Source of the DNA: Obrimoposthia wandeli
Lineage: Eukaryota
Direction: 5' to 3'
Assembly: GCA_977020255.1 (NCBI GenBank)
Contig: CDROCS010000001.1
Location: 434,001-498,000, forward strand
Length of the DNA: 64,000 nt
Shown: one piece after another, positions 1,710-55,560 of the stretch
Layout of the letters: each line of letters opens with the position of its first letter
How positions within the stretch are numbered: the stretch's first letter is position 1
The notes under the pieces: generated by a model
Told to the model about the DNA's origin: nothing
The model's input: only the letters and a program-made list of their open reading frames with translations
Database searches by the model: none
Position numbers and translations under genes: made by a program

Positions 1710-2155
1710 CCCTTAACTTATACATAATCATAAGGGTATGGTTGAACTCAATTTTGATAGACAAATACAACCATGTAATAAAATTATTTAGTTTGTTCCA
1801 AATCTGATCCTTAACTTGTGGACGACCCTAAATTTTTTACATGATTAAACGCACAATATTTTGACAATCACAACCATGTACTTAAAACTTTGAAAATCCA
1901 ACTTTTTTTACCCTTTCATCTATGGTCATACCATATGGATGAATTTATGGATGAATTACCCTTCTAAAGATTCCAACCATGGACGACCACAACCCCTTTG
2001 GTATATTGGCCAACCATAGAGGGTCACGACGATACCTTCAACCCTCCATAACCTTTCTCCTCCAGACCCTTATGGTGTGGCAAGCCACTTTGTGAGATTG
2101 ATGGTGTGCGCACATGGGGAGGTCAAGTGTTCTAGACTCCATCCTTCCACCTACT
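1710..2155 (+). repeat. Solo Maverick/Polinton terminal (TIR) fragment
   Basis: Colinear similarity to the right TIR at 49.5-50.3 kb (aacttgtg.acgacc, caaccatgtactt, ggacgaccacaacccc, ggtgtgcgcaca). Ends in the same terminus, tctagactccatccttc.acctact. Confidence 0.85.
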
Positions 2156-2519
2156 ATAATTATTATAAAAATAGTGCTGGACGCCATAATGACGGAATAT
2201 TCAAGGTTATTGATTTGGAAAAAACTTGATGCTAGTGCAATGAAAGCTAAAATAAGTAAGATAACATGAAATAAATTAATTGACAGTACATCATATTATA
2301 AAACACTTTAAAAATATATAAGGAATAAGGCCAAGTGTGGTTTTCTTATGATTGAAATAGAAAGTCTACTATCATAAAATGAGAATTAAAATCAACAAAC
2401 CCAAAATTGATCGTGCACTGAAGTTTCACCGAGAAATAAATCTTTCACTTAATTATTATAAAGTAAAGTATAAAGAAACATTTGAAGAAAATAAATTTAC
2501 TGCAATACTGTAATATAAT

Positions 2520-19524: not shown

Positions 19525-20777
19525 TAGAAAACCAAAGGATTTGTTTAAAAGAATTATTTTTATCTATTTTCAATAAATGTAAGTTTTAAATATTATAAAA
19601 TATTAAAATTTTATTAGATTTAAATTATGACGCCACAAATTTCTAATTTTCAAAGGCAAGTAATTATTTTATTTAAAGAAGAAAATCCTAAGTGGGGACT
19701 TGAAAAATGTAAAAGCATTTTACCCCAGTTTTTTAGTAAAATAACTGAAAATCAGTTTTATGCAGCATGTGTTCGGTTGAAGACGGAAGGCGCAGCGATG
19801 GCTAAAAAAAGAAAGAAAGGATCAGGAAGTTTAAAAATAATAACTACTCCAATGAAGCAGGAAATAAAAGCACTGGCTGTAACCCCTGTAAGCAGTCCTC
19901 GTCATAGGCATAGCAGCCAAAGACAAATTGCTAAAAAATTAGGAATATCAAAGACATCAGTCTTTAGAGAATTACGAATATGTTCTCTAAAATGTTATAA
20001 ACGTATACAATGTCACAAACTGACAGAACGTCACAAAGAAGCTCGAAACTTGAAATCAATTAACTTGCTAGAACGTTTCCAACATGAGGATTTATGGAAA
20101 AAAGTTTGGTTCTCTGATGAAGCCTCATTCAATATCTCTCCTCCAATAAATAGTCAAAATGAACGCATATACAGAGAAGTTACGGTGAAAACCGATATTC
20201 CAAACGAAGAATTAATTGTTGAAGTTGATCGACAGCAGCCATCAATAATGATTTATGGTGCAGTATCGTGGCATGGAAAATCACAACTAAGATTTATTGA
20301 AGGCTTCGCTGAAGTACCGAATAATGTTGGTTCTTCAAAAAGAAAAAAGAAAACAGTTAATCAGCATGTGTATCGTAATGAGATGTGCCCCCCAATGTTC
20401 CAAGACATAATCAACGTAATGGATGGTGAATCGTGGATGCGACTATTTCATGGCTTCAAGAGAATGTACCAAGTTTAATTATGCCACTTGATTGGCCCTC
20501 AAAAAGTCCAGACTTAAATGTTATGGACTATGCTATTTGGGGAATAGTGCTACATGAATTGCAGTTAGTACGCGAAGAGGTTTCCACAATCGATGAACTC
20601 AAACTATTTTTAACGCAAGCTTGGGATAATATTAGTCTGGATACCATACGAAAAGCTACATCATCATGGATAAAACGTCTTCAAACATGTCGGGATAATG
20701 AAGGAAAACATTTTGAACATTTATTATAAATGTAAATAAATTTATTTAAATCCTTTGGTTTTCTACGGACCACCCTG
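19525..20777 (+). mobile_element. maT (DD37D-type) Tc1/mariner element, one small internal deletion
   Basis: Right TIR aaatcctttggttttctacggaccaccctg-TA; left TIR truncated (tagaaaaccaaaggattt). The transposase has an HTH, WFSDE and WPSKSPDLNVMD. The segment ATISWLQENVPSLIMPLDWPSKSPDLNVMD aligns gap-free to the maT DD37D spacing, but the QQD second Asp is deleted. Confidence 0.85.
19627..20729 (+). pseudogene. maT transposase (frameshift at ~20445)
   Basis: ORFs 19627-20478 and 20433-20729 join into one transposase. Confidence 0.85.
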
Positions 20778-26613: not shown

Positions 26614-29172
26614 CAGGGTTTCTCAACGGGGGCCCTGGGGGGCCACACAATTTGCCAGGGGGGCCACACGAGCCAAAAAAAAAAAAATTAACACCCCTGT
26701 TTTCACTGGGTTAAACACTTCGATGGCTGCACACGTGTGCCACAAATAAATGTTTGACATGGAATAAAAACAGAGTATAGACTTCTAGATACATATGGAC
26801 GCGACGCGTCAACTTATTGCGTGGGCGTACCAGCCCAATGAGGGCCGACGGTAAAACATCATAATATGCCTGTGCAATAATATCATCGCGCTACAAAAGT
26901 TTGTGTGGCGGATGTGGCATGTGCATAATCATCATCCTGAGTAATATATGGACTAAAATCAGTAATCGTGTTGTGTCTCAGCGTGTGAAGAGAAGAGTGT
27001 CACACTTCATGTGTACATGCCCAAAATACGCTGCCATTGTAAAATGCTACCTACCTAACTCACAAACGTGCACTTGTGTTTGTTTTGAATGAGTCAGTGG
27101 TTGATTTCTTTCTTCTTGTTTGTCATTCACCATATCTGAATGTACACACATAGGACCTTGTTTTTCTAATTGTCTTTTTGCTCACGTTACCCTTGTAAAC
27201 AATTTTCATTTCTGATTTTTAGTTGACAATGAGCAGCAAGAAAAAGTGCAGACAGTATAATTGTGATTATTTACGTTTCGGATTCATTGCAAGCCAAAGT
27301 AATTCTCAACTTCCTGAGTGTATTGTCTGTAACACTGTGCTCTCCAATGACTCAATGCGACCATCAAAACTTGAGGCTCATCTCCAAAAGAAGCATCCTG
27401 ACATTGCAACAAAACCGCGCGCATATTTTACTCAGCTTCGTGATCAGAGGACAACAGCCTCAACCCAATTGCGAAAATTTGTGGTTCCTCAGAACTCTAC
27501 TTCTGGCTTAACAGCATCATATAAAATTGCATATTTAATGGCGAAACGTGGTAGAGCGCATACACTGGCAGAGCAGTTGATTAAACCTGCTATCTTGGAA
27601 GCATTTAATGTTGCCAATGTATCAAATCCACAGTCAGTGCTCGCATCGATTCCTCTCTCAAATGACACCATATCGCGACGTATTTCTGATATGGCTGCAA
27701 ATGTGGAATTCATCGTCACAAATGATCTTCACAATTCACAATTCTCATTGACGCTTGATGAAAGCACATTTTAGAACCAAGCGGTTGTTTTGGCATTTGT
27801 CCGTTTCGTCAAGGATAGACAACTCAAGGAAGAGTTGTTGTTTATCAAAACTGTGGTAAACACGACAGGCGAATCTGTGTATAACACAGTCTGTAAGTAC
27901 TTCGAGGATCATGGTATAGACAAGAGAAACATGATATCCATTTGCACTGATGGTGCCCCATCTATGGTGGGTAAAAAGCAAGGTGTTGTCGGTCGCTTTC
28001 TGCAAGACAGGACCATCTTTACAATGCACTGTGTACTTCACCGTGAGAATTTGGTCGCGAAAGACTTGGGCGGAACAACTTTGATGGATTGTCTTAAAAT
28101 TGTTGTCTCAGCAATTAACAAAATAAAGGCAAGAGCTTTACAAGACCGCCTTTTTCGTGAAGCTTGTCAAGATGAGCACTTTAAATGCTTGCTTTACTAT
28201 ACCGAAGTACGGTGGCTCTCGATGGGAAACTGTATATCGCGATTTGTCGCTCTTTTTGACAGAGTTGTTGAATTCTTGAGCGAAAGAGATGCTAATCTCA
28301 CAAACAAACTGATTGAAAGCAAAAGCACCATTTTATATCTGGAGGCAATATTTGGAAAACTAAACGAGCTTAACATGGTTATGCAGTCACAAAATTTCAA
28401 TATTGTTAATGCCAAGCGAATTATCAAATCATTTATGAACAAATTGATCGTTTGGGCAGCAAGTATTCGTGCTGGTAACTTCAGTCATTTCCCAAAATTG
28501 GCCAACGATGTTTGCAATCCAGATTTGCGAGACATCATTTTAGTGCACTTGGAAGTCCTGTATACAAACTTTCAGCTAAGATTTGAGGATTTAATTGTGT
28601 TGACTGTTCGAGCATATATTGATTGTCTTCACGTCATGACAGTCGATCAAATCATCGATTTTCCCGAGAACATTCAAATGGAGTTATGTCAAGTTCTCGG
28701 AGATGACAAAATGATCAGCATGTCAAAGCAGAATTGGGTGGCAGCATGGCTGGAAAATTCAGAAATTTATCCGGAAATTTTCAAGAAGGTTTATCCCTTT
28801 ATTGTTAATCTACCGACGTCGGTGTTAGCTGAGAAGGGGTTCTCAGTTGTCCTTCATTCGTTCACAAAACAGCGGATGAATCTCAAGTTGTGTGACAATG
28901 CAGAAATCCGTTTACGACTTTCTGAAATTGCTCCAGATTTCACTACACTTGTTGGCAAACGCCAAGCGCAAGGGTCACACTAAGTTAGTGTCACTAATAT
29001 TTTTTAAATATAGTTTTCTCATTGATTATCTTTTTGAATGTTTCCATGACAGAATAGTATAATTGAAAACAATACGTATACGATGTAATCTTTTTGTCCA
29101 TAGTAGAGGGAGGCCACAGCAATTTGCTGCAAACTAAAGGGGGCCGTGGTGAAAAAAGGTTGAGAAACCCTG
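26614..29172 (+). mobile_element. hAT Buster/Charlie DNA transposon, full length
   Basis: TIRs cagggtttctcaac / gttgagaaaccctg with a perfect 8-bp TSD GTCTAGAG (26606-26613, 29173-29180), matching the NTCTAGAN target. Confidence 0.97.
27229..28983 (+). pseudogene. Buster-type transposase (ZBED5/SCAND3-like) with a single in-frame TAG at 27772-27774
   Basis: BED finger CIVC..HLQKKH, LDEST, CTDGAPSM, HCVLHRENL, TEVRWLS, LAEKGFS. ORFs 27223 and 27790 are in the same frame. Confidence 0.93.
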
Positions 29173-37469: not shown

Positions 37470-38340
37470 ATGTAGCTGGACTATCATGAACTATCGCCAG
37501 ATCCAGCAGAGTGGATAAACATTTCTGACAATATTAGACAAGTTTTGGTAAAACGTGGTCCTATGCAATTATCAGAGTATAAATTTTCTGTTAATGAAAC
37601 AGATTGACATTTTTCTGTATCTCATTATATTCGTTGTTTGCCAAATGGGAAAAAATTGTTACGGAATGGCTAATTTATTTAAAATCGAAAGATTGTGTAT
37701 TTTGTTTAACGTGCATTTTATTTGCACCTGAATAAATAATTGGACGATAAATGGTTATGCATCTGGGCACATTTATCACGCGTGTTAAAATGTCATGAGA
37801 TATCCTCAGCTCATTTTGATAGTTTGAAAAGGTAGGGGAAATAAACTTGAGGCTTAAAACTGGAAATACAATAGATGCTTCTCAATAAAGTACACTGATT
37901 TATCAAATTCAAAAGTAGTAAGACATATTAAAATAAACTAAAGCAGTTTTGCAATTTTGCAATTTTTTGCGTCGCAATTACTTGCTATTCGCCGATCAAC
38001 AGATAAATATTTTTTATTTTTTACCTGTTGCAGATACTTTTGGTGAAGCATTAACAAATAATGTTATTGATGAATTGAATGCGTTTGAAATGCCAATAGG
38101 ATATATGAGAGGACAGGGTTACGACAATTGTTCCAATATGAGAAGAAAGAATTAAAATATAATTAAGCAAATTAATCCACGAGCTTCATTTATACCCTGT
38201 GCTTGCAATTCCCTAAACCTACAATTATGATGCAATACAATTCAGCTTCTTCTGGAGAGACCACTTATTTCTTCCACATAATTCTAAACATTTCTATTTT
38301 TCTGCGTTTATTAGTCGTTGGAATGTGTTTAAAAAGCTTA
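37470..38340 (+). mobile_element. hAT (Tip100/ZMYM1-like) transposase remnant
   Basis: PDPAEW...KRGP, FCLTCILF, MRGQGYDNCSNM, FIPCACNSLNL and SRWNV motifs with frameshifts. Confidence 0.8.
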
Positions 38341-38357
38341 CTACAAAATAAATTTTA

Positions 38358-38572
38358 TGTTCCATAATAAAAATCAAAGACATCGACAAGAATTCACTTT
38401 TATTCAACTTTCCAAACACTACTACTACAAATCCGAATACATAAACAAACTATCACATGCCTCCACGTAGTCTGACAGGTACGCTGGTCTTCTCCTCACT
38501 TCTTGGTCTGTCCTTTTTCCTAAGATGGGACATATCTTCTGCTACTTCATTGTCAATTTCAATACAAGCACC
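38358..38572 (-). mobile_element. Internally deleted Gypsy remnant with 100-bp 3' LTR (38358-38457)
   Basis: Minus strand encodes GACIEIDNEVAEDMSHLRKKD (like RNase H GIVVEIDGSVVEDFSWLRKED at 52.65 kb), fused to RPAYLSDYV (like RPAYLDDYV at the pol end, 53.94 kb). It is followed by a TG...CA LTR. Confidence 0.75.
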
Positions 38573-39340
38573 AGTAGGTAGAAGGATGGAATCTAAGCCA
38601 CTTAACCTCCCCTGTGTGCGCACACAATGTTAAAGGGTGTCACACCATAAGGGTGTCTTGCCACACCATAAGGGTCTGGCTCAGAAAGGTTAGGATAGAG
38701 GAGGGGGAGGGGGGAGGGGGAGAGGGAAGGGTTAAGTGGCTTAGTATCCATCCTTCTTATGGCCGACTAACATAGCCAAGGGTTGTGGTCGTCCATAATT
38801 CAAAGGGTCAGACTCAGTTTTGACTTGAAGCTTTGAAGGTATAATTGAGGTCAACTATGGTTGACCATCACATCTAAAGGGTCATGGATGTCCATAAATC
38901 AAAAGGTCAGGCTAAAAACAAAATCAAGTTTTAAATATCAAGGTTTTAGTACGTGGTTGGAATCATCTTTAGAAGACGAATTCATCCATAAAGGTATGGT
39001 CGTCCATAGATGAAGGGTTAAAAAAAGTTGGAATTTCATAGTTTTAAGTACATGGTTGTATTTTTCAACATATTACGAGTTTAATCATGTAAAAATTTTA
39101 TGGTCGTTCACAAGGTAAGGGTTAGATTTGGCATAAGTTAAGGAATTATATAGTAATTAATCAATTATTCTATGTGAAAGTTAAAGTTCACTCTTATCAG
39201 TTAAGGAATGTATTACGTAATAATACACACACTATTATATGCGAAAATTTAGACCAAAGTTTTTTCCCAGGCTTACACATCTAAAGAATTATGGTAAAAT
39301 TTATTTAAATAACTTAAATTATATATTAAAATAAAAATAA
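38573..39340 (+). repeat. Maverick left TIR
   Basis: Reverse-complement match to 49267-50303, with substitutions and repeat-number differences. Confidence 0.93.
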
Positions 39341-39379: not shown

Positions 39380-42300
39380 TTATGTAATTTCATAATGTCC
39401 ATAAGCGCGGCTTCTATTTTTCTCGATCCAATAGCGTTTGTCATCTGATGAGCTGAGAGCAGTCTTTTGTATTATGATTGTGTTTGGATGGTGATTTATT
39501 GTTCCAAACTTATTTTGTGGTATAGTATATGTATTACCGTTTTCATACAGTCTAAATATGTTTGATGTACAACCGTTGATCCATTAAGATTTACTCCTTT
39601 TGCTATATTATTTTCAAAGTCATCTTCAAACTTAAGTGAATAACATTTACAAAGTAAGAAGATCCATTCTTTATACATTCTTCCTTCCGATTCATCTTTA
39701 AATAAACCTATTTTACTATTAAATTTATTAGAATACAATGGATCATTCACATTATAATTTTACGTATCTAATGCTCCATCTGCAATCATTTGAGGTAACA
39801 ACTGATTTCTTAAATTAACACCTTTACATTCTAAAAAGAATGAATCAGTATCTCATGCAACTATATTAATTGAACAATTAAATAGTGATCTATAATTTTG
39901 TAAATCATGATACTGAAGAGTATACATTCGTAATTTGCTAAGGTCTAGTACAGCTTGACCTATATAGTTTGGTCGATCGAGACAAATAAGGTATTTTCTT
40001 AATAAAACAGCTATTAAATTATCATGAATTTCAATTGTTCGTTGAAACATAGGTTTGCTAATATATGTAATTAATTTTGTAGAACTAGTGCAGATGCAAA
40101 GATTCAACCGTTTCTTAACATTTTCAACGGTCTTTCCATGCAAACTAACATTTTTAAGTTTATAAAAATCTTTGTCACATTTATTCGTTGCTTGTGATCT
40201 CATTTCAGAATTATATTCTATATATTCTGCGAATATCTTAGCCTGAGAGAATTTTACTGCTCGATGAATAATTGTTATCACTACTCCTAAACTAACATGC
40301 ATCTGCAATAGTCTCCAATGAATAACGTAATGACTTTTTGGCGAATATGTCATTAAAAGTTTTTCAACTTTTTTTAGCATGTGGACATTTCTTCTCTGGA
40401 GCTATAGGAAGATCGTCTAAAACGTCATGAAGGTTTTCTAGTATTACCAAGTCTACCTCCATAACATAACTATATTCAATATGTTCCATGTCCACATTTT
40501 TCATTTAATGCAATATTTTGTTTAATTTTATATCATCAAGAATCCATTCAAAATCTCCTTTTGGTAAAGGTTGATCAAGAGCCCATCCATATTAATTTTT
40601 AACATATATATATAAAAAACTCGTTTCTTCGTCAGCGACTACATGATGCTTATTGATAAATGTCATTCCTCCACGTATACATGAAGAAATCATGTTGTAC
40701 ATTTCAGGATCCTGCATCAGTTCAACCTTATGTTTTAACATTTTTAAAGCACTTGCCCAACTCAATCCAGGAATGCTAAAAAGGTTAAGTGGTTCTAAAC
40801 CATCTTCACTGAGAGCCTTTCTACTGAATGTTTGAAACGCGTCAGCTAATAAATATACGTCAGTCTTTAAATAAACTAACATATAGTCCATCATATTTCT
40901 ACAATTGGTTATTTTCCAAACATTTTGTGCTTTTTGATATTCAGTGTCTGTGATTTTATCATTCCATTTTACTGGTAAACTTAACTTATTCTGGAGAACA
41001 TTTAATGATGTAGGAAAATTATATGGGAATATTCCTTTGTCATCAATGAGTTTAGATGGAAAAACTGATCTTGTTAATGGAATAGTTGGTAATTTACTGG
41101 CTAAATTCTACAAAGATGATTGTAAAAATTGTAAAGAATCTATAAATATCAGAGTTATTTGACCTTAATCTTACAATCATTGCTTGAAATTTTTCTGTCG
41201 ATTGAATTATATTATTTATATCCCAGACAGTAAATTTATTCAATGCATATTTTAAAATATGATGTAAATCATAATCTCTGAGATTATGAAATACAATAGG
41301 TAAAGTTGGACATAGTTTTCTTGATAAATTACATTCGATACTTGCCAGTAAAGTGATCTTGATCTTTTACATATTTTTCAGATGATTCGTGACATAAATA
41401 ACATTCATCGGATTGCTAAATGCACGAATCTCTGCATTTGTTAAGGGAATCATTACGTTTTTAAGAGCATCTAAATACCATGGCAAAACCTTTTCTTTAG
41501 CCAAGTTCTATATTGACTGAAGAAATTTAACTATGCAGTCATCACCAACATTATGTTGATACTGGGTTTCAATTTTATCTGTACTCATAAATAACATACC
41601 AAATGCGACAGGCATATGCTTTTGATGATAACTCTCGTCTGGTACTAATACAGATTCAAAATCAGTGTAAACGACATATTTCGGTGATATAGTTTTTGAA
41701 AAATCGTTGAATTTAACGTACTTATTCTTAGGCATAGTATTCATTGTAGTGCTTTCTTGATTATAGTCACATAAAGCTTTATGCTTTTCTAATGACAAAT
41801 CGGTTTTGAAACCATGTAAACACTTTTCACACCATTTTCTGCTAATTCTAGTCGTTCCAGTTCGAATATTTAATAGTCGGTTAAGACATCTTATTCCTAT
41901 ATAATGAAACCGTTCCTTGGATTCTAGTAACAATAAATTAACTATAGTTCCTTCCTTCAGTTTTGATTTGTATGCAACATCGATATAAGGATTCTTGATA
42001 ACATCAGTTTTTGATTCTTTTTCACTTACCCCATTGAATATGAATGCATTTATTATTATACCAGAATTTTCCCGTTCAAATTTTGATATATTTGATATTT
42101 TCATAGGCATGTCTTTAGTATTATATACAAAATCATTTAAAAGTTTTTCATAGTTGCTTGGTCTATTTCTATGTGATTCTATTTCATTATATTTAAGTAT
42201 TGATAATATTGCATAAATAAAGCAAAGATTATCAGAGTTTAGAATATTTATGACAGCTTTAGATTTTGTAAGAGAATTTGGTGATTTAATATATGAATGA

Positions 42301-43053
42301 CCTGGCAATGCAAAAATTTGACTATATTTAGTAGCAATAAATGCGTATTCAAGTATGTTCATCAATTTCCAACCACTACCTTTTTCTGAATATTCTTCAA
42401 CTTTATTTTCCATTGTATCTTCCATTTCTGAAATTATAGCATGTGAAAAAATCATTGCTCGATGCGAAGCATACCATTCTTTAGTTTCTCCATCATTCTT
42501 TTCAAACCTCTTTCTAATGATGTATTGAATCTTTGCATTTCCCATTAATTGTACTATTCTTTCTAGTTCGTTTAATAATGAATCTGGAACCTTAAGACTT
42601 ACAAGATTGAGATGATCTACTTTCATGAATATCGTTGAATAACTATTTTCTAACGATGTTTTAGTCTGTATATTGTCATTTATTTTACGATTTCGTGACG
42701 GAGTAGGAGCTGGAATTACTATGCTTGATGGTTCATTAATTATATCAGTTCTTTTGCTTAAAACCGGTACTTTAAATAATGTTTTCTTACTACCATTTTT
42801 ATATTCTGTTAAATGACTAACATGACTATAAAGTAAGTTGTCATCAAAATTTTCAGTTACTTAAACATTGTGGACATATGTAATAATTTACCCTTTTGTA
42901 TGAATAACCATAATAATTTTTCATGATATCATGACAGACTTGAGGCTTAAAATGTGTTTCCGATGAACAATAATTTGAATATGTTTTGCATATACTCATC
43001 TGATGATTTGATTGGTATTGAGATATTGATTGATTTGATTGGGCTTGAGACAT
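39380..43053 (-). pseudogene. Protein-primed family B DNA polymerase (pPolB) with N-terminal zinc finger and EndoVII-like insert
   Basis: FHNLRDYD (Exo II), YLKTDVYLLAD (Exo III), mutated motif A YIYVKN*YG, KLKNVSLHGKTVEN (B), *DTDSF (C), and C-terminal KTALSSSDDKRY..YGHY. Many stops and frameshifts. Confidence 0.95.
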
Positions 43054-43134: not shown

Positions 43135-43611
43135 ATGTTAACAAATATTAATTATAAAGAAATTTGATTAGATGATGTAACCAAATTAAAAGTTCGAACA
43201 CGACCAGAACAATACGTTTATAAAGCCAAAGATTATTCAATACTTATTTTTAGAAATAAGAAATGCAGGATTATGGGATGTAAGGTTCCTATTAAAAATA
43301 TTTCTTACCCTTTAAGAATAAATATACTCAGTATTCAATCAATTACGGTATGTGAAAATTTAGATCAAAGTATCAATCTATTTAAATTATGGAATGTGTT
43401 ACGTAATAAATGTTCATTTGACCCTGAGGTTTTCCCAGGTTTTAGATTAAATATTTTCAATCCATTGTGTGTGAATATTTTCACATCTGGAAAGGTCGTA
43501 ATCTTAGGTCTTAGAAATTTAGATTTTCACAACCAAGTTAACGATATCATGACATACATTAATAAAAATAATATAAATACGAAAGAATTTCTAATTAAAT
43601 CATTCAATTAA
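43135..43611 (+). CDS. TBP (TATA-binding protein)-like protein, two repeats, one premature TGA at 43165
   Basis: Repeat 1: LTNINY...LIFRNKKCRIMGCK. Repeat 2: IQSITVCENLDQSINLFKL..SFDPEVFPGFRLNIFNPLCVNIFTSGKVVILGLR, compared with TBP [54 protein letters not shown]. Confidence 0.85.
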
Positions 43612-43991: not shown

Positions 43992-44075
43992 TAAATATTT
44001 AATAAAATTTTGTTATTATTATTATAAACATGTACTTATTCTGATATATTTAATTTATTTTAATATTCATATATA

Positions 44076-44705
44076 ATGTTATTAACTAACAATTCGACTT
44101 TTCAAGTAGTAGGTCCAAGTGGTTCAGGAAAAACTTTATTTGTTTGTAAATTATTAAATTCAAAAATATTTAAAAATAAATTGAATAAAATATATTGGCA
44201 TCAAGGTGGTGACGGCGAAGATGGTTTAACAAACCAAGAATTTAATAAAATAAAAAACATTAAGAATATTAACGGTTTTGATGAAAATTGGATGACAAGA
44301 CTCGTAAAAAGTGATGTAATTGTTATTGATGACTTATATCAAGAGGCTAACAAAGAATCTGATTTTAATAATTTATTTACAAAAATTGCAAGACATAGAG
44401 AAGTTACTGTAATTTTAATAACCCAAAATTTATTTCATCAAGGAGGAAATCATCGTACTCGTAATCTTAATGTACATTATTTGATTTTATTCAAAAATCC
44501 TAGAGATCAAACAGTGATAGATTTTATTGCTCGTCAAGCATTTCCTCATAACAAGAGTTGTTTAATTGATGCGTTTCATGATTCTACATCTTTACCTCAT
44601 GGTTATTTATTTTTAAATTTTACTCAATCATATCCTGATGATTTAAGAATTGTTACTGATATATTTAACCGTAATGGTATTACAGTCTATAAACAAAATA
44701 AATAA
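44076..44705 (+). CDS. A32/FtsK-like packaging ATPase
   Basis: Walker A GPSGSGKT, Walker B VIVIDDL, plus RHREVTVILITQNLF and RNLNVHYLILFKNPRD. Confidence 0.95.
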   Translation: MLLTNNSTFQVVGPSGSGKTLFVCKLLNSKIFKNKLNKIYWHQGGDGEDGLTNQEFNKIKNIKNINGFDENWMTRLVKSDVIVIDDLYQEANKESDFNNLFTKIARHREVTVILITQNLFHQGGNHRTRNLNVHYLILFKNPRDQTVIDFIARQAFPHNKSCLIDAFHDSTSLPHGYLFLNFTQSYPDDLRIVTDIFNRNGITVYKQNK

Positions 44706-44946
44706 TAATAAAGTTTAAAATAAAATAAATTTTAAAAAGAGTATTCTTAAACATAGTAAAAGGACAGATAAAGATGAAGTTAAAAAATTAATAAACACTG
44801 TATTATATGATCGTAATAATATTGAATTTTCAAAACGTTTACCTTCTTTCAAAACCTTAGTTGACGTATCAAAAACGAATAAAATGAAAATGTTGAAATC
44901 ATTTCCAATTTATGTAGTTGATGATTTAATAAAATTCAGTAAATGA

Positions 44947-45720
44947 AGGATTCAAGTATATTTTTTATTTAGTCGTTTTGCAAGGGCAGTTGGTATTAAA
45001 TCAAAATCGGGTATTGATTTATTACATGCAATAGAATCTTTAATTGTTGATGATGTACCAGTAAATATCCAAACCGATGAAGGTAAAGAATTTTTTAATT
45101 CACACGTTAAGAAATTATTTAAAACTGAAAATATCAATCATTATTCAGTATATTCTCAATATAAAGCTGCAGTAGTTGAAAGATTTAATAGAACGTTAAG
45201 AGAACGGTTAAAGAAATATTTTACTAAACAAGGTAATAAGAAATGGGTGAATGTATTACCAAAAATTATTTATGCTTATAATAATTCTAAACATAGAGGT
45301 TTAGATGGTTTAAAACCTGAAGATGTATATAATAAAAATGAATTTGATATTTTGTTGAAACAAAATCCAAAAGAAAAGAAAGTTAAATCTAAATATAAAA
45401 TTGATGATTATGTTCGAATATCAAAAATAAGTACAAGTCCATTTATTAAAAATTTTAATCAAAATTGGAGTGATGAGGTTTTTCAAATTCATGATATTAA
45501 TTATAAACAAAATCCAATAATGTATATTTTAAAAGATATTGATAACGTCATCATCAAAGGAAAATTTTATAAACAAGAGTTACAATTAATTGATAAACCT
45601 AAACTATATCGAATACAAGAAATTTTAGAAACTAAAGGTCGTGGTAAGAATAAACAATATTACGTAAAGTGGCACGGATACTCTGAACCTTCTTGGATAT
45701 TTGCTTCTCAAATTGAATAA
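44947..45720 (+). pseudogene. RVE integrase with C-terminal chromodomain, 5'-truncated
   Basis: FSRFA..IQTDEGKEF..KAAVVERFNRTL and chromo YRIQEIL..YYVKWHGY. The N-terminus and first catalytic Asp are deleted. Confidence 0.93.
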
Positions 45721-46728
45721 TGTCAAAATATATTATTTTACCTAGTAATAGTTGTCCAAGTACTCAACCTAACAATACAGCCAATCAATTTACTAGAGGA
45801 AAACTCTCTAAATTTAGATGGTGAATGGGAGGTTGCCTTGACTGAATTTGTATTTAATTATACTCCTTTAACAATACAAACTAATTCAAAAATACTTTAT
45901 AAAACAGAAAAGATAGAAATGAAAACTTTCGATGTATCTTTTGCAATTTTAAATGGATTAATTTTTAATAATTTAAATAATGTTTTCAATTTCAAAATTA
46001 CAAAGGATCAAAAATTAGAAATAAGTACAATTAACAGTATTCATCGAATGTTGTTAAAATTCGAATCTTTAGAAGAATCAAAAATTATAGGTTTTAATGA
46101 AATACAAAAAATTTCTAGTCATGTTATAACAAGTGATGAAATTGTTGACATAAATAAAAATATTCATGCTAAAATGAGAATTACAATTTATTCTTTAGCT
46201 GAATATGAATACGAAATAAAATTTAATCAAAATTATTTGATATAAGATAGTTCTTCATTATGTAATATTATAGCCAGTAAATGTAATGCGATTTTTAAAA
46301 GCTGTAATATAGATTCAAACGGATTATTTGATATTTTAATAAAGAAAAATGTAAAATCAGTTTTATTTGACGAAAAACTTGCATCTTTATTAGGTTTAAA
46401 TAATGTTTTCTTTGAGAAACGAATTAAAGGTTTTCAAGAACCAACACTTTCTAGCTCATATAATCAAATGTATATTTATACTAGTTTAACAGATTCTGTC
46501 TTAGTAGGATCTGATTATGTTCCACTGTTAAAGTCTATTTGGTTAAAATCATTAAAATATCGATATGGAGATGTAGTAAATGTTAAAATTGATAATCCAA
46601 TGTACTTGAAAATGAGAGATTCAAGTATTAATAGAATCGAGGTAAATATACGTGATGATTCTGGTAATTTAATTCCATTTTCATATGGAGCAAAAACTAG
46701 TTTAACTCTTCATTTACGTAAAGTATAA
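45720..46728 (+). pseudogene. Minor capsid (penton/PZ) protein
   Basis: ILPSNS..NT.NQF..LDGEWEVALTE at the N-terminus and MYIYTSL..VG...PLL..IRDDSGNLIPF..LTLHLRK at the C-terminus. Frameshifted. Confidence 0.9.
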
Positions 46729-46756
46729 ACAATATAAATATATTTAAAATATAAAA

Positions 46757-47158
46757 ATGAATACATCAATTATAAAATTTTATAGCAAAAGTCAACAGGG
46801 CGGTGAACTTCCCTATTTCATTGGTAAGCAATATGGATCTGGTTGGTTTCAAACTATTTCTAGATGAGCTATTCCATTTATTAAAAAAGCTGGTTTATCA
46901 GCAGCTACAAGTGCTGCCAATGCAATTGGCGAAACGGTAGGAACTGCGTTAACAAATCCAAAAAACTTAATTTCATCTCTCAAAGAAAATACAATCAAAG
47001 AAGTCGAAACTTTGATTCCAAAATTAAAAAATAATGCTGTTGAGAGTTTAAATAAAGTCGCAAATTGTGTTGAACAAAATGGAAAGGGTCTTAAACGTAA
47101 AAGAAATCATTTAAATAGTATAAACAAACGTCTTAAAGGTACTATTTTCCAAAAATGA
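46757..47158 (+). pseudogene. Core/PW-like protein with GxG/xGG protease-cleavage-type motifs
   Basis: QQGGELPYFIGKQYGSGWFQTISR*AIP..QNGKGLKRKR, with one TGA at 46865. Confidence 0.7.
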
Positions 47159-48374
47159 CTAGTATAAAATCTGAATTGTGTATTTTCGATAGACCACTAC
47201 CTCAAGTAGTGATTGAAAATTCAAGTTTTGAAGAAATATTTCCAATCAATTCAATTACTGGTGGAAATTTAAATGACATAGAATTTAATATTCATGCATC
47301 TGAAGAAGATTATCTGGATTTGAATGATACTTTGTTAAATATTAAATTAAAAGTTGTAAATGAAGATGGTACTGATTTAATGAAAGATAACGATGTAACT
47401 CCAGAGAATTACATGTTTCAAACTTTGTTTAGAGATGCTATTCTAACACTTAATAATGTAAAGGTTGAAGGAGGAAATGGAACGTATACTCATAAGGCTA
47501 TATTCGATACTCTTTTGAATTTTAGTAGTGATACCAAGTATACTAACCTTGAATGTTCTGGGTATGATGATGATGCAAAAAATCGTAAACAATGGATTAC
47601 TGAATCTAAAATATTTTCATTGTGTAATTCAATTAGATTAGATTTCTTTGATCAACCAAAATATTTGATTCCAGGGATTAATGTTCATTTGAGATTTATG
47701 AGAAATCAGCATAATCTTTCGCTCTATTCAGAAACTTCAAAACCAATTATTCAAATTCTAGATGCTAGATTGTATGTTAGAAGAGTAAAAGTTGATTCTT
47801 CAGTAATGATTGGACATCAGTTAGGTTTGCAAAGTCAGAATGCAGTTTTGCAATTAGAAAAACTCAGTTAGTAACATATTCAATTCCTCAGGGTTCTTTG
47901 GAACTTAATAAAGATCAAATATTCGGAGACTATCGTTTACCCAAGTTCATTTTGATTGCTTTCAAAGATACACCTCAGGGGGGTAAGGAATACAAAGTTA
48001 AATCTTCTACGTTCAATACATTTAATGTTTCAACAATATCATTAGCTAGAAATACAGATTATCGAGAAACTTATAATCTAGATAATAACAATTTTTCATT
48101 AGCATATATGCAGTCAATTATTCGAAATATGAATATTTTAGATAAAAACTTGAATAATGGTATCAGATTTTCTGATTTTAAATCAGGAAGTTCGATTTTC
48201 ACTTTTCTATTAGCACCAGATTTTGATATAAACACTACTCAAGTGCCTAAAACTGATAATTTAAGACTTGAAATTAGATTTAATTCTCCTTTGGTTGTTC
48301 CAACAAGTGTTTTGATTTACGGAATATTTGATTCCGAAATTATGATTACGAAAAATAAAACTGTGATTGTATGA
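47155..48374 (+). pseudogene. Double-jelly-roll major capsid protein (PY)
   Basis: KSELCIFDRP.PQ.VIE..IEFNI....YLDLNDT and LEIRFNSPL...LIYG.FD. Frameshift at ~47865. Confidence 0.92.
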
Positions 48375-48447
48375 AGTAAGCTTATTGTATATTATATTCT
48401 TTATTTAAATTAGTACTTTAGAAATTTATAAATCCGGAAAAATATTA

Positions 48448-48747
48448 TTGAATAACAAATTTAATGGAGTATATTCATTGGATAAAATTCCATCATTAAA
48501 ACCCGGAGGCTACATTATCAATACTCATACTTCAAATCTACCAGGCGAACATTGGATAGCAATATTTGTTGACAGATTCAAGATTCGAGTGTTTGATCCT
48601 TTTGGATTCTATTATCCTTCAAAGTTGGTGTCTACACTTGAAAAAGAAAACATTCCAGTCTACTATAATCGAGTTAAATGTCAGAATCCATTAACTAAAA
48701 ACTGCGGACCTCTGAGTCTTTTATGGTTGAAACTTCAACACAAATAA
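48448..48747 (+). CDS. Adenain-like cysteine protease
   Basis: FNGVYSLD, INT...PGEHWIAI, FDPFG and CQ....NCG (His/Asp/Gln/Cys). Confidence 0.9.
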   Translation: MNNKFNGVYSLDKIPSLKPGGYIINTHTSNLPGEHWIAIFVDRFKIRVFDPFGFYYPSKLVSTLEKENIPVYYNRVKCQNPLTKNCGPLSLLWLKLQHK

Positions 48748-48797
48748 TTTTAAGTATAAACAAATATATCATTATAGTATTTCATTTTATTTTTCAA

Positions 48798-49250
48798 ATG
48801 GCTTTTATTGATTTAGAATGTTTTATTGATAATAATGGAGAATATATTCCAAAGGAATTATGTATAATGTATGTGAATGATATGACTTGTCCATTTCATT
48901 ACGTGTTTAAAAATCAAATACCATGGAGTAGTTTATCATTTACAGTTAAAAGAAAAATCTATATTTGATAAATCATCATCATCAGTTATCCTGGTTTGAA
49001 GGTGAAAGCTCTGATATTCATATTGATGATGTTGAAACAATATTCTATGTTATGGATTCTATTGATGGAAAGAAAATTAATTTAGTGAAACGAATGTTTC
49101 CAAATTTGAGAATTGTGAATTATAATAAAAGTTTCAAAAATTTAAAGAAAATACCAAAAAAATATTCGATGTCCGTTTAGAAAACACGGAAAACATTGTG
49201 CTTATTTGAAATGTTTTTCTCTATGTATTGATTATGTAAATTGTATATAA
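48798..49250 (+). pseudogene. DEDD/DnaQ-like exonuclease-fold accessory protein with C-terminal Cys/His cluster
   Basis: MAFIDLECF..YIPKEL..HQLSWFEG..CPFRKHGKHCAY across two frameshifts. Confidence 0.55.
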
Positions 49251-49266
49251 ATATATTTATTAAGGA

Positions 49267-50303
49267 TATTTTATTTTAATATATAATTTATGTTATTTAA
49301 ATAAATTTTACCATATTTCTTTAGATGCGTAAGCCTGGGAAAACTTTAGACTAAATTTTCACATAGAATAGTGTGTGTTATTACGTAATACATTCCTTAA
49401 CTGATAAGAGTGAACTTTAGCTTAAATTTTCACATAGAATAATTGATTGAATACTATATAATTTCTTAATTTATGCCAAATCTAACCCTTAACTTGTGAA
49501 CGACCATAAAATTTTTACATGAATAAACTCGTAATATGTTGACGAATACAACCATGTACTTGAAACTATGAAATTCCAACTTTTTTTAACCCTTCATCTA
49601 TGGACGACCATACCTATATGGATGAATTCGTCTTCTAAAGATGATTACAACCATGTATTCAAACCTTGACATTTAAAACTTGATTTGGTCTATATCGCGA
49701 CCTCTTCATATATGACCGACCATACTTTATGAGTGACTTCGTCTTCTAAAGATGATTACAACCATGTACTAAAACCTTGATATTTTAATTTTTTTTTTTT
49801 TAGTCCGACCCTTTGACCTATGGACGACCACAACCCTTTAGATGTGATGGCCAACCATAGTTGACCTCAATTATACCTTCAAAGTTTCAAGTCAAAACTG
49901 AGTCCGACCCTTTGATTTATGGACGACCACAACCCCTTGGGTATGTTGGCCGACCATAAGTGGTCATGACCATACCTTCAAACCTTCAAGTCAAAACTGA
50001 GTCCGACCCTTTGACCTATGGACGACCACAACCCCTTGGGTATGTTGGCCGACCATAGGTGGTCATGACCATACCTTCAAACCTTCATAACCTTTTTGAG
50101 CCAAACCCTTATGGTGTGGCAAGACACCCCTATGGTGAGGCAACATATACCCTATGGTGTGACACCCTTATGGTGTGACATTTCTATGGTGTGACACCCT
50201 TGTGGTGTGACACCCTTTAACTTGGTGTGCGCACACCACCCTTTAACTTGATGTGCGCACACAGGGGGGGTCAAGTGATCTAGACTCCATCCTTCTACCT
50301 ACT
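49267..50303 (-). repeat. Maverick right TIR with three ~99-bp and several ~17-bp internal repeats
   Basis: Units starting agtccgaccctttga at ~49802, 49901 and 50000. acaccc.tatggtgt units at 50105-50215. Confidence 0.93.
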
Positions 50304-50336
50304 ATCGTTCTCCACGCCATCTTGGATTTAACTACA

Positions 50337-50348
50337 AGCTATTTCGGC
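50337..50348 (+). promoter_or_regulatory. Putative primer-binding site complementary to nt 1-12 of tRNA-Phe(GAA)
   Basis: AGCTATTTCGGC directly after the LTR end. Its reverse complement GCCGAAATAGCT is the 5' end of human/Drosophila-type tRNA-Phe. Confidence 0.7.
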
Positions 50349-50349
50349 T

Positions 50350-51032
50350 ATGAAGGAATTGGAGACCATCAGCATTTTCGATAGGATGTCGAATGTGGAT
50401 GAGTGGATTATTGAGATCAAATTGAAGGCCGATCTGCTTGGACTGGAGAAGAAATTAAGTTCAATTATTCCGCTGAGAATGAAAGGTGAAGCCTTAATGA
50501 TGTTTACGAATTTAGAAGAAGACAAAAAGAAGGATGCAGAATCAATTATGAAGCGATTAAGAGATACCTATGGGATGGGTCAGCTCGAAGCGTTCAAGCG
50601 ATTCAGTCAAAGGAAGTGGCACCTCGGAGAATCAGTCGATCGGTTCGCGTCGGAATTGAAAAGTTTAGCATCAAAGATTGGTAGGGGAGATAACATTGTA
50701 AAACTAGCGCTAGTCGCTGGCCTGCCTTCAGACACTTCAGAAGCTCTGGAAATTTCGATGAAGTGTGGAAACTGTTCCTTAGAGCAAGTTATAGCTGAAA
50801 TCCGGACTAGGATGACAAAACAAATTGGAATTGAAGGTATCTTCCAAGTTGGAGCTGTCGCAGTTCATCATAGAAAAAGAATAATTAATTCAGGAATCAA
50901 ATGCTTCCGATGTGGAGATGAAGGCCATGTTCTAGAAACTGCTATGTGGAAGAAAAACGCAGATGCTACATATGTTATATAGTTGGTCACTTGGCGCCAT
51001 TATGTCTCAAACGAGAATCAAAAAACCACTAA
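50350..51032 (+). pseudogene. gag with two CCHC knuckles (frameshift at ~50930)
   Basis: CFRCGDEGHV/RNC and CYICYIVGHLAPLC, ending at TAA 51030-51032. Confidence 0.85.
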
Positions 51033-53960
51033 GGGAGTCCGTATGTGCCAGCAGCTCTCCCAATGATAAGGCGTATATTCCAACTGTCATCATCAATGTT
51101 GGAACTAAAGCTTTGAAAGCAATGGCTGATACTGGATGTTCGAGATCTATTCTTTCGGATGCGTTGACAGTCAAAGAATTAATCTCAAATTTTGATCATC
51201 ACATTAATTAATGAACGGAAAAAGTGTAAATTCGAGGAAGTGCATGGAATGTGAAGTTAATTTAAATGGACGTAAAATTCGACTAAATTGCATCGTTTCT
51301 CGTATAGTACCTGGCTATGACATGTTGTTGGGAATGGATGCTGTCAATATACTTGGTGGAATTTGGGTAAGTGGTGATGGAAAGAATGTTAAGTTTGGCC
51401 AATTCACTGATGTATGTGTGGTATCAGATTCATCAAATCCGGTTGGAGTTCATTATCATGTGAATGTGCTTCCGGTCAAACGGTTCTCTTTAGAACCAAC
51501 AATTGATTGTGCGATGGAAGAAATAGTTGGATGTGGTTCCACAGTGAATAGTACATTCAAGTCAAAGGATGAAACTTGTGTACATGAAAGAGGAATGAAG
51601 AATCCCATTCAGGGAGAAGTCGGGGATGTCGTGGATAAGGATTTTCATGCAAAGTTCGAGAATGGAAGATGGATCGCGAGATGGCAATGGAAAGAAGGAA
51701 TCGTGAAGCCAGCTCTACAGAACCAGGTGAGTCAATATCGGGTAAAGAACGAGATACTAGATCAATTTGAAGAAGAGATTGAAGAATGGATAGAACAAGG
51801 TTGGCTGAGAAAGTATGATGGTGAGCACACTGGTATAATACCTCTCGGCCGTTCTACAGCAAAACAAAGGAAAGGTTCGTCCTGTGATGGATTACCGAGA
51901 GCTTAACGATTATGTTTCAAGCCATACAGCTCAAAGGGAAGTATGCGGCGAAAAGCTGAGAGAATGGAGGAGATTGGGAGACAACTTGAGCATTGTGGAT
52001 TTAAGGAAGGCTTATCTACAAATCCATATTGACCCAACTTTGTGGAAGTATCAGGTTGTAGTTTACAAAGGAGTTAAATACTGTTTAACGCGTCTTGGTT
52101 TTGAACTCAACGTAGCTCCAAAGATTATGTCAGCAATCGTAAGGAAGGTTTTGTCAATGGATCAGACGGTGGAAAGTGAAACAGATTCTTACGTAGATGA
52201 TATAGTTGTTAATAAAGAGGTAGTATCTACTGAAGAGGTTATCAATATGTTATTAAAGTACGGTTTAGAATTGAAGCAGCCAGAAAAGCTGAATGGTGGT
52301 AGAGTGCTGGGACTGCGAATTCATCAAAACCAAAATGTGATGGTATGGAAGCGTGACAATATACTGGCTAAAGTGAATGACAATTTAACGCGAAGGCAAA
52401 TGTTTTCTCATTGCGGTCAGATGATTGGACACTTTCCCAAAGCTGGATGGTTGAGACCGGCGTGTAGTTATTTGAAAAGATTGACAAACGGTATTAATTG
52501 GGAAGACAACGTCGAGAGTAAAATCGTTGAAAAGCTGAAAGAAATTGAGGAACGTGTTTCGGAAAACGATCCTGTGCGAGGAGTCTAGAAAGTGACTGAT
52601 ACGATTGAAGGAACAGTATGGTGTGATGCTAGCAGTCTCGCAATGGGAATCGTAGTGGAAATTGATGGTTCGGTAGTTGAAGACTTCAGTTGGTTGCGGA
52701 AGGAAGATGAGTCCTCTCATATCAATTTGGCAAAGTTAGAAGCAGTTGTCAAAGGACTTAATTGTGCGATCAAATGGAGGCTGTCGCGAATTCTTGTTTA
52801 TACAGATTCGTCTACGGTCCGTGGCTGGGTAAAGTCAATTACATCTGGAGACAAACGAGTAAAACGCATAGTCTTGGATCGGCATTATCGCATAGGCGAC
52901 TGAATCTATTGAAAACCATAATAGAAGAATGCAGACTAACTGTTAATATCAGGCTAGTAAAGTCAGCAGGAAACAAAGCTGATGAGCTTACCAGAGTGCC
53001 CCAAAAATGGCTCAATCGTGCAAGCGTGGGATGCAGTAGCGTAATCGGCAATGAAGGAGAAATATTGGCAGTACACAACCTGAATAATCTAAAGTGTCAG
53101 TATCCTGAACTCAATGTGAAACGAGAAGAAGTAGCAGCTGTCGTAGAACGCTGTTTTAAATGCAAAAGTATAGATCCAGCACCAATTCGCTGGGAACATG
53201 GTGAGTTATCAGTTGATGCGAATTGGAGTCGATTGGCCTGTGATGTAACCCATTATTTAGGGAAGTGTTACTTATCCATTATCGATTGTGGACCAAGCCG
53301 ATTCACAATATGAAAGTTGCTCAATGATGAGACACAGTATTCAGTGACTACCGCCATGACTGATGTCTTCAGAGAACGTGAGTTGTTGATGGATAATAGC
53401 CCAACCTTTAAGTCACGGCAATTTCACAATGCTTGTAGATCATGGAAGGTCAAGTGTGTGTTTCGATGTGCTTATCGACCATCAGGAAATGGGATAGTGG
53501 AACGTGTTCACATAACCATCAAACGAATGGCTACCAGAAGTGATGCAGATGTCCGTGACATAAGTTTTTGGTATAATGCTTCTCCGAAATGTAGTAACAA
53601 GGACCATTCTGTTCCCGTACGAGAACTGTTCACATACGAATGGCGACATCCAAACGTTGAACCAAAGTTGTCGACATTTCAAAACATTACAGGTTACAAC
53701 ATGGATCAGGCTGTATTTGTCAAACCTCCCAATGCGCGTTGCACATTAGTTTGGCCTAAGGGAGTAATTACTGGTTTGAGTGGAGCAACGCAGGTAGAAA
53801 TCGACGGAGTTCCTCGACACGTGGCCGACGTCAGACCGATTCCAATACCACTACCAGAACGGCCAGAGACAATTGCGGATGTATGAGAAGAAGAAGTCGC
53901 TTCCGATGATGCCAGAGAATGCCCATACGGCGACCGGCATATTTAGATGACTATGTGTGA
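51020..53960 (+). pseudogene. pol (PR, RT, RNase H, IN), several frameshifts and stops
   Basis: ADTGC (PR); DYRELN, DLRKAYLQ, YVDD (RT); WCDAS..HINLAKL (RH); CFKC, ACDVT, MDN, GIVER (IN). Confidence 0.93.
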
Positions 53961-54630: not shown

Positions 54631-55560
54631 CCCATTATAACCCAGGTTCACAATTTTTTGAATTTTTAAATGATTTTTCCAACAATATAGTTTAAAAGGC
54701 GAGGAAACATTTTGTACTAGTCAGAATTAATTTACCTCAAAAAATAACTGAGATATGGGGTGATCTTATATGAGATCACTGAGATAATAAGGTACTAAAT
54801 GTATAGTTAATTCAAATAAAAACACCAATTTTTAAAAATGTATTGACGAGCTATTACATTCTGTGGTACGGTAAAAACAATCGACACACAAGGTGATATT
54901 GCATTTTGAGCAATATTTTCTTGGTTGTGAAGAACAGGGCTTGTTTTGACATCTTTTTTGATGATCCCGTTTTCTTATAATGTGACCTTTGGAGTCGAAT
55001 CGAATACTTGGTTCATTTTTTGATGGTCCGGGTACTGATTTTTTTCGACCAAGCTGACATCTAGGACTTGCCAATTTTAAATATGACATGGTAACAGCTC
55101 TTCTAAAAGACAACAAATCAATAGATTCTTTTGGATTATCATGTACAAATTTGTAAATTATTCATGAATTTACCACTGCCATATAAATAATACGAGTAAA
55201 AAGAGGCCAATACCACTTGAGTATTTATTTACTAACCAATCATGTTAGTCAACACCTCCCATGTAAGCATTATAGTTTTTCAATGTATTTGGTTGAGAAA
55301 CATACCATCTTATCTTTATGTTTTTTGCCAACGTTGTACTTTTCCTAATGGCTCTAGTGTGTCGTAATTAGTCCAAACAATTACCTATTTGTTATCAAGC
55401 CATTTAACAATTAGAACTTCCTCATTCGAGTCAAATCTATAGTCGTATGACCCCCTTTTCTGTTTTTCATTTATTTTGATTAGATCAACGGACAATTATT
55501 TAATCTATTTTCACGCATTGTCCCAGTTAATATGGGATAATAAAAACGTATTATTGAAAA
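54631..55560 (-). mobile_element. piggyBac 3' half remnant with right TIR
   Basis: TTAA-CCCATT terminus at 54627-54636. YMGGVD, KWYWPLF and Cys-rich tail RFD..GH..RC..C..C.KC..LC..CF. Confidence 0.88.

Follow-up and report, generated by a model that had tools for sequence, protein, structure and literature searches.

Terminal repeats, gene content, and copies of the element

The window (by which we mean the whole 64,000-nucleotide stretch of Obrimoposthia wandeli DNA analyzed here) contains a Maverick element of 11.7 kb that carries a TBP-like gene and is bounded by terminal inverted repeats (TIRs) with arms that are 86–96% complementary (Table 1). A broken pPolB gene lies back to back with a rightward cassette in the order TBP-like gene, ORF2, ATPase, small ORF, integrase, putative minor capsid, pX-like, putative major capsid, protease, and DxE ORF, the latter presumably exonuclease-like, with the capsid, pX, and exonuclease labels resting on position, mutual likeness, and recall and not on library matches. 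It had been predicted from the sequence that the TBP-like gene opens the rightward cassette, and it is indeed the first ORF there, inside the TIRs. The last codons of the ATPase gene (YKQ) spell another TATAAAC, at 44688. Mavericks/Polintons have a 6-bp target-site duplication; here it is absent, as the six bases next to 38573 do not match those next to 50303. Another terminal-repeat fragment of this Maverick family stands isolated at window positions 1737–2157, and a broken LTR-retrotransposon-like stretch with RT and RNase H matches (50332–53886) starts 29 nt to the right of the element. DNA-transposon transposase-like fragments are found at 19624–20729 and 27223–28983, both with weak HTH and Spin-doc zinc-finger matches, and at 37937–38367 and 54832–55161, which we take to be hAT-like and piggyBac-like, respectively.

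Table 1. Features of the Maverick element, in window coordinates, and loci of the interruption found in related TBP-like genes
Feature	Position	Strand	Basis
Left terminal inverted repeat, starts AGTAGG, inner edge approximate	38573..39340		Repeat comparison
pPolB, broken	39496..42860	-	PF03175 E 4.9e-7 on one piece; pieces match whole L055 polymerase
TBP-like gene, broken copy; repeat 1 reduced, repeat 2 complete	43135..43611	+	PF00352, sister-copy fold, family columns
C-terminal stirrup FDPEVFPG: acidic pair at TFIIB-contact positions and first Phe of repeat 2	43417..43440	+	Family columns
ORF2, 125 aa	43614..43991	+	Conserved near TBP-like gene in several elements; no family match
TATAAAC, candidate late promoter word, 53 nt before ATPase start	44023..44029	+	
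A32-like packaging ATPase	44076..44705	+	PF04665 E 9.6e-6, above cut-off
Small basic ORF piece upstream of integrase (136-137 aa in sister copies)	44719..44946	+	
Retroviral-type integrase and chromodomain, 5' part missing here	44947..45720	+	rve/chromo weak, below cut-off; E 3e-48 to L055 integrase
Putative minor capsid gene, broken	45721..46728	+	Position and likeness to L046/L050 ORFs; no library match
TATAAAC before small pX-like ORF (46868-47158 piece)	46724..46730	+	
TATAAAC, 36 nt before putative major capsid start	47119..47125	+	
Putative major capsid gene, frameshifted	47155..48374	+	Size, position, likeness to L046/L050/L055 ORFs; no Pfam match
Adenain-like cysteine protease	48409..48747	+	PF00770 E 0.002, below cut-off; likeness to other elements' ORFs
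TATAAAC (48755) and broken conserved 150-aa ORF with DxE motif	48755..49180	+	No library match
Right terminal inverted repeat, ends CCTACT	49269..50303		Repeat comparison
GT..AG interruption in TBP-like genes of other elements	L050:376-415; L126-L128, L131, L134, L139-L141, L144, L152		

The TBP-like gene consists of an ATG, 158 codons, and a stop, with a single premature TGA at codon 11 (43165–43167), in agreement with the 158-codon frame and one premature stop of the original prediction, and the window copy is a dead allele. The motifs that had been named (LIFRNK, EVFPG, and NIFTSGK) are found in the protein, with LIFRNK at residue 37, FDPEVFPG at 95, and CVNIFTSG at 112. The Pfam family PF00352 matches residues 66–130 only, well above its curated cut-off (44.7 versus 22.9 bits; E 1.2e-11), so the sequence search detects repeat 2 alone. 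A PDB sequence search with the window protein returned archaeal and eukaryotic TBPs (best E 2.7e-14).

Open copies of the gene are present elsewhere in the host genome, which is AT-rich, spans 1.35 Gb, and has intron-bearing TBP and TFIIB genes of its own. A 23-base word from the TBP-like gene occurs 294 times in the genome and a control word not at all. The best 150 scored matches, a set that is biased to the best, are all 90–100% identical to the post-stop frame of the window gene, and eight of them contain an internal stop. Thirty loci were fetched and 29 were readable from the ATG, namely the window copy and 28 sister copies, all 28 of which are open, 181–184 aa long, and 98.7–100% alike; as they were chosen by best protein score, the open-frame count and the within-family variant counts are biased. 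The window copy is about 96% like these open copies. The 181–184-aa frames of the young sister copies (L002–L030) overlap the ORF2 start, and the window frame and most relatives end near 145–160 aa. Two further Maverick families in the genome carry a TBP-like gene with about 51% and 38–49% identity, respectively, and host TBP paralogues match over short stretches only (30–40%). As to these, the genome contains at least five TBP-type genes (L116/L117 on G000:C238, L118/L121 on C968, L119, and L120, the last two on C60 and C1092); two are arranged head to head, one has exons spread across 8 kb, and two are intronless and divergent, one of the latter with a Maverick pPolB fragment 0.6 kb away.

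ORF2 represents a conserved family of about 120 aa that lies beside or near the TBP-like gene in seven aligned elements (the window, L037–L040, L045, where it is duplicated, and L143). Several members look intron-interrupted at the 5' end. Searches of Pfam, PDB, and Atlas gave no match for ORF2, and an OB-fold is our guess. The inner right TIR (49378–49455) is 81% like nucleotides 43330–43409 of the TBP-like gene, and together with a stretch of the left TIR (39152–39223) the range is 75–81% (E 1e-14). Such a stretch occurs in at least one terminal repeat of all six sister copies inspected, often in tandem, and a 23-nt word of it is fully identical in three of the six; no such match was seen when 10 kb of sequence from each of the other two families was compared, although these regions possibly do not reach the repeats. 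It could be a piece captured from the gene, a binding site common to both, or an origin of antisense RNA.

The TBP-like gene of one metagenome element, and that of 10 out of the 12 third-family copies that were checked, is interrupted by 38–41 nt with GT..AG borders, at the same glycine codon of repeat 1 (Table 1), and the frame of the host canonical TBP runs uninterrupted through this site. That two lineages share the position of the interruption suggests transcription by Pol II and splicing, and we infer from the sequences that it is a spliced intron. Several database proteins of the family start at a Met just after this site, and these annotated starts are possibly due to this intron. A 1.9-kb stretch of an element of the intron-bearing family (L141:3400–5300) drew about 1% of all contigs from four runs of one sample, which indicates a very high copy number of that family. 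Among the matches listed, the contigs of these runs had no joint across the interruption, which speaks neither for nor against expression.

Fold, ancestry, and functional surfaces of the TBP-like protein

An alignment-based structure model was built for L005, an open sister copy that shares 93% identity with the window protein; the model reached a pLDDT of 91.5 and has the two-lobed saddle of TBPs. Foldseek aligned residues 1–150 with TBPs (best E 2.5e-9) and returned 44 matches at E ≤0.001, of which all those listed are TBPs. VIA comparison with five TBP chains gave Z scores of 11.4–13.5, compared with 6.5 for the next unrelated row; the best alignment covered 145 residues at an rmsd of 2.7 Å, and the ten-strand saddle resembles cellular and archaeal TBPs (1mp9, 5fur, and 7o4i) with Z 13.1–13.5. 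Sequence identities to such TBPs are 19–24% in the structure alignments. The best viral structure match in BFVD was the Heterosigma akashiwo virus TBP (E 1.1e-7). The presence of both TBP repeats, which had been read from the sequence, is borne out by PF00352 for repeat 2 and by the structure for repeat 1, but the latter is not complete: canonical TBPs have two helices in each repeat, and the model has the strands of both repeats and no helix before residue 82. In the model, repeat 1 is therefore reduced, with the strands kept and both helices lost. The longer subtype L055 has a helix-2 span of 34 residues and by alignment retains more of this helix.

Searches for relatives yielded 17 close proteins and 85 loci, and at least 55 clusters at E ≤1e-30 among 50%-identity representatives, with the best 150 matches listed. 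The alignment comprised 212 rows of at least 125 aa after 16 near-duplicate or broken loci had been dropped by hand, and the 188 rows that fill 75% of the core were used for the tree. One clade with a support of 98 holds 125 of these 188 rows (106 proteins and 19 loci), and in an IQ-TREE analysis of 63 rows, the 26 chosen family members fell together outside the crown eukaryotic group (SH-aLRT 97). AU tests rejected neither a grouping of the family with the host TBP (p 0.42) nor with the divergent host paralogue (p 0.63), and no donor is singled out by them. On these trees, the Maverick TBP-like family is one old clade, in agreement with the original view that the gene is not a recent host capture.

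Analyses of selection and linkage had been proposed along with this view. Among 24 coding sequences, synonymous sites are saturated in 156 of 276 pairs, and in the 25 least saturated pairs dN/dS is 0.13–0.47; by this measure of the sequences, the family is under purifying selection. Hallmark Maverick genes adjoin 9 of 24 family loci in metagenomes, two of the nine being near-identical, and none of 61 other TBP loci, so that homologues are flanked by Maverick genes in other genomes as well. With any element-type gene counted, the numbers are 18 of 24 versus 0 of 61, and the 15 family contigs without a hallmark gene are all 3.4 kb or shorter. L055 is an 18.4-kb element with open ORFs, and in it the TBP-like gene directly precedes the ATPase gene. 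Relatives of the ATPase or capsid were not found in the viral contig collection, nor was a TBP match found in the phage collection. One viral contig (L032:857–2569) encodes a 570-aa protein with an N-terminal divergent TBP domain that forms a long branch next to the Maverick clade.

The functional surfaces were assessed by counts over the 125 family rows, with the yeast DNA-facing positions as tabulated in PMC12529657 (Table 1 therein). As in cellular and archaeal TBPs, N69 (115 of 125), F116 (124), F190 (124), P191 (105), and F207 (125) are retained, whereas the F99 column, which lies in a poorly aligned stretch, is P in 119 of 125 rows. Three of the four intercalating Phe residues of canonical TBPs are hence kept, each in 124–125 of 125 rows, and the retained Phe residues include those that had been claimed from the window sequence. 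The hydrophobic DNA face of cellular TBPs has given way to polar residues that are fixed in the family, with the swaps V71N (98 of 125), V122R (124), T124M (125), N159S/T (124), V161T/S (124), and L205N (125). An R is found in 99 of 125 rows at a further column, to which we assign the position number I194. Most of the 63 other TBPs have the usual residues at the rewritten columns.

The acidic pair with which canonical TBPs contact TFIIB, numbered E186/E188 by us for the family, is present: the first position is acidic in 121 of 125 rows (113 E and 8 D) and the second in 124 (123 E and 1 D). The acidic stirrup residues are written E184 and E188 in the accessible part of PMC12529657, and that of PMC7221094 describes C.L3.2 and C.L3.4 as the acidic pair that contacts TFIIB, the same contact being used by Brf1/Brf2, and N-lobe helix 2 as the element that docks TFIIA, TAF1, Mot1/BTAF1, and Brf1/2 via a basic patch. 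In the Maverick family, the helix-2 span of repeat 1 has at most 28 residues in 87 of 125 rows and 22 in the short form, compared with about 35 in other TBPs, and the median number of K and R residues in the span is 3 versus 7. The protein as a whole has about 145–185 aa and lacks an N-terminal extension, and its repeat-1 span of 54–111 residues (mostly 65–75) compares with about 91 in cellular TBPs, from which the short form further differs in having neither helix 1 nor helix 2 of repeat 1, besides the loss of F99. Judged from the family columns, the protein would thus combine a new DNA face with an intact TFIIB dock and no regulator dock. A TFIIB family match was found neither among 18 window ORFs nor among 14 ORFs of L055, with several small ORFs being familyless, so that a very remote one is conceivable.

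The candidate promoter word YATAAAC

In the regions upstream of ORFs from 23 loci, TATAAAC is present in 23 of 103 cases (shuffle mean 1.5, maximum 7 of 200) and CATAAAC in 12 of 103 (0.9 in shuffles), and 18 of the 35 YATAAAC sites are located at −40 to −31. In ten elements with a total of 81.5 kb, the cassette strand has 86 such words and the opposite strand 8; of the 86, 32 lie 20–62 nt before a start, where 3.4 are expected. The word is biased toward certain gene classes: in a count in which some rows are internal starts of broken genes and PolB starts are mostly uncertain, it precedes the ATPase in 9 of 9 cases (two rows being one family), PLA2 in 2 of 2, the major capsid gene in 4 of 6, the pre-integrase ORF in 4 of 6, the DxE ORF in 3 of 6, the minor capsid gene in 2 of 8, the integrase in 2 of 9, the pX-like ORF in 1 of 5, the protease in 0 of 3, ORF2/SSB-like genes in 2 of 12, KilA in 0 of 2, and PolB in 0 of 7. 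Several virion-module genes thus lack it nearby. "Late" is a loose label for this class, as the exonuclease-like gene has the word in 3 of 6 cases. The conserved YKQ at the end of the ATPase is encoded by TAT AAA CAA in 8 of 8 cases, one further copy being without YKQ, for which codon usage gives 0.10–0.61 per element.

The TBP-like gene itself is not preceded by YATAAAC within 65 nt in any of 25 cases, and when true starts and 100 nt are considered, 1 of 22 has it; the true-start check leaves L141 and L143 to the by-class count, where both are negative. A canonical TATAWAWR lies upstream of 8 of these 22 genes. Counted by eye, 13 of 22 TBP-like genes (L036–L054) have the word TCAT[A/T] no more than 25 nt before the start, often with a canonical TATA further up, and it is a possible initiator of an early class.

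A second Maverick group in the same genome, with a PF21738-type capsid, served as control. In 10 loci of 18–20 kb, searched about 10 kb to each side of the capsid gene, this group has no TBP gene of its own, and the sole TBP match lies beside an ATPase that is 70% like that of the window and belongs to a neighboring insertion. YATAAAC precedes 0 of 38 assigned gene starts in this group, which as one lineage of damaged copies in one genome amounts to one contrast and not 38. In these TBP-less elements (L156–L175), T-rich runs ending in TTTAAAAA directly precede the capsid ATGs, and TTTATAAAAA is found about 30 nt before most PLA2-type genes.

A proposed early-to-late switch and its alternatives

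We consider it probable, from sequence comparisons and structure prediction, that the TBP-fold protein is a late-gene promoter factor that uses host TFIIB and Pol II. The idea of a promoter-recognition factor of the element's own had already been put forward in the original prediction, and it is now supported by the fold, the linkage to Mavericks, the purifying selection, the rewritten DNA face, and a word that tracks gene class and the presence of the TBP-like gene. In the proposed sequence of events, the TBP-like gene would be expressed early, from an ordinary host-type promoter and by the host machinery. The protein made from it is predicted to recognize YATAAAC through the polar saddle, at sites some 35 nt upstream of packaging and capsid genes, and to hold host TFIIB with its acidic stirrup, by which RNA polymerase II would be recruited to start at these genes and switch them on. 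The lost repeat-1 helix would free the protein from host TBP regulators, and the Maverick genes would be split in time into an early and a late set. The full version of this idea, for which we see somewhat less than an even chance, is that a nuclear virus-like element of 12–18 kb runs a one-protein early-to-late cascade by means of a TBP of about 145 residues, which has its own DNA code, YATAAAC, lacks the helix gripped by host TFIIA, TAF1, and Mot1, and plugs straight into host TFIIB and Pol II.

The protein might read the word and yet initiate with another partner, either a viral one such as ORF2 or another small ORF, or a Brf-type adapter together with Pol III. The acidic contact is shared by Brf1/Brf2 (PMC7221094, in its accessible part), several exons of this genome look Brf-like by eye, the familyless ORF2 accompanies the gene in the seven aligned elements, and herpesvirus TBP mimics act within a viral complex (PMC12529657, likewise). 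However, Brf1 also needs the helix-2 patch of the N-lobe, which is shortened or lost here, and in most family loci ORF2 was not detected beside the gene. T runs terminate Pol III, and the downstream genes are long, protein-coding, and full of T runs. Initiation with such a partner is, in our view, unlikely. Similarly unlikely is a decoy or repressor that sequesters host TFIIB or blocks promoters, with the word being read by host TBP or a forkhead protein. Solved structures show TBP bound to TATA variants (e.g., 1qn3), and TATAAAC might be close enough to a TATA box for host TBP to read; the forkhead consensus RYAAAYA fits ATAAACA, and the base after YATAAAC is A in 32 of 45 sites. It would also suit a decoy that no functional surface is kept better than the acidic pair and that one DNA-contacting Phe is lost, but the DNA face has not decayed and is instead fixed at new residues, as the near-invariant V122R, T124M, and L205N columns illustrate. 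The word, moreover, is locked in strand and distance, unlike enhancer-type sites, and absent from the TBP-less group in the same host. The decoy, which had been offered as an alternative in the original prediction, is therefore the weaker of its two readings.

It is rather improbable that the word is a 3'-end signal for polyadenylation or termination, or a by-product of stop codons, and that the protein acts elsewhere, for example on the terminal repeats in replication or packaging. TATAAA is a poly(A) variant, the inner TIRs share an 80-nt stretch with the TBP-like gene, and 26 of the 86 sites have a stop no more than 20 nt away, with the internal TAA itself serving as the stop in 12 of these, which leaves room for a 3'-end role. 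The vicinity to stop codons is also explained by the dense packing of the genes and the TAA inside the word, and of the 32 start-proximal sites, 13 are near a stop and 19 are clear of one. Against such a role, the presence of the word goes with the kind of gene that lies downstream, as it precedes the ATPase in every case whichever gene lies upstream, and it is missing before the TBP-like gene even when a same-strand gene ends just upstream. In the window, a separate AATAAA closely follows the ORF2 stop and lies ahead of the word. Finally, one could regard the gene as a captured host TBP that decays without function, given the broken window copy and the AU tests that do not reject a grouping with host TBPs. 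This is very improbable and largely refuted by the family columns and the sister copies: more than 100 distinct family rows share the invariant residues, dN/dS is well below 1, and the readable sister copies, although chosen by best score, are without exception open.

Viral TBP-fold factors are already known from large DNA viruses and herpesviruses. Large DNA viruses (Nucleocytoviricota) mostly encode their own RNA polymerase. Their TBPs have, like the Maverick protein, a viral TBP fold without the N-lobe regulator patch, but according to the accessible part of PMC7221094 they are mostly accompanied by a matching TFIIB gene and keep C.L3.2 in about 40% of cases, whereas the acidic pair is kept in 97–99% of the Maverick family and the scanned ORFs include neither a TFIIB nor an RNA polymerase gene. 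The herpesvirus example is KSHV ORF24, a viral TBP fold for the private late-promoter word TATT, and as far as the accessible text of PMC12529657 goes, it resembles the Maverick family in retaining Phe residues and in having polar residues at V122, T124, V161, and L205. Unlike the Maverick protein, which is a bare mini-domain of 158–184 aa with the acidic pair, ORF24 has 752 aa and several domains, belongs to a viral complex, is devoid of the acidic TFIIB residues, and was modeled as incompatible with TFIIB (PMC12529657). The likeness between the two is probably convergent.

In its TIRs, pPolB, integrase, ATPase, protease, and capsid-type ORFs, the element resembles the Mavericks/Polintons described as adintoviruses in the accessible part of Starrett et al. 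(2021; PMC8502044). The main text of that paper contains "TBP" once, as a label in the legend of its Fig. 5 on polinton-related MELD viruses, without analysis, and this may or may not be the Maverick family; no such label was seen in the text of Supplementary Fig. S2 with the animal adintovirus maps, and no promoter word is described in the parts available. VLTF3 is a transcription factor reported from some polintoviruses, and the accessible text of a coral polintovirus paper and of a 2026 PLV framework preprint gave no matches for TATA, TBP, or TFIID. No description of the Maverick TBP family or of YATAAAC was found in the open literature, which was in part covered by listings, and the adintovirus legends were the sole link found there between a TBP gene and a polinton-related virus. 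The original remark that no TBP described from a Polinton was known to its author has to be qualified by the label in the legend. A Maverick-borne TBP family with a matching candidate promoter word is apparently undescribed.

The one-protein cascade, if true, would add a third viral route to taking over initiation, beside the TBP–TFIIB–polymerase set of giant viruses and the multi-protein mimic of herpesviruses. A promoter factor with its word would also bear on the open question of what activates the virion genes of Mavericks and whether these elements live as autonomous viruses. Expression of the TBP-like gene would then mark the switch from a silent insert to a particle-making state, and the word would predict which ORFs without known function belong to the late class. 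The protein would represent a natural minimal TBP with changed specificity, in which the TFIIB dock is kept and the regulator dock dropped, and as such it would test which TBP surfaces Pol II initiation needs and provide a candidate orthogonal promoter system. On the practical side, the automatic annotation in JGI names labels the family genes as ordinary TBP, and we therefore would like to caution that such labels hide Maverick TBP genes.
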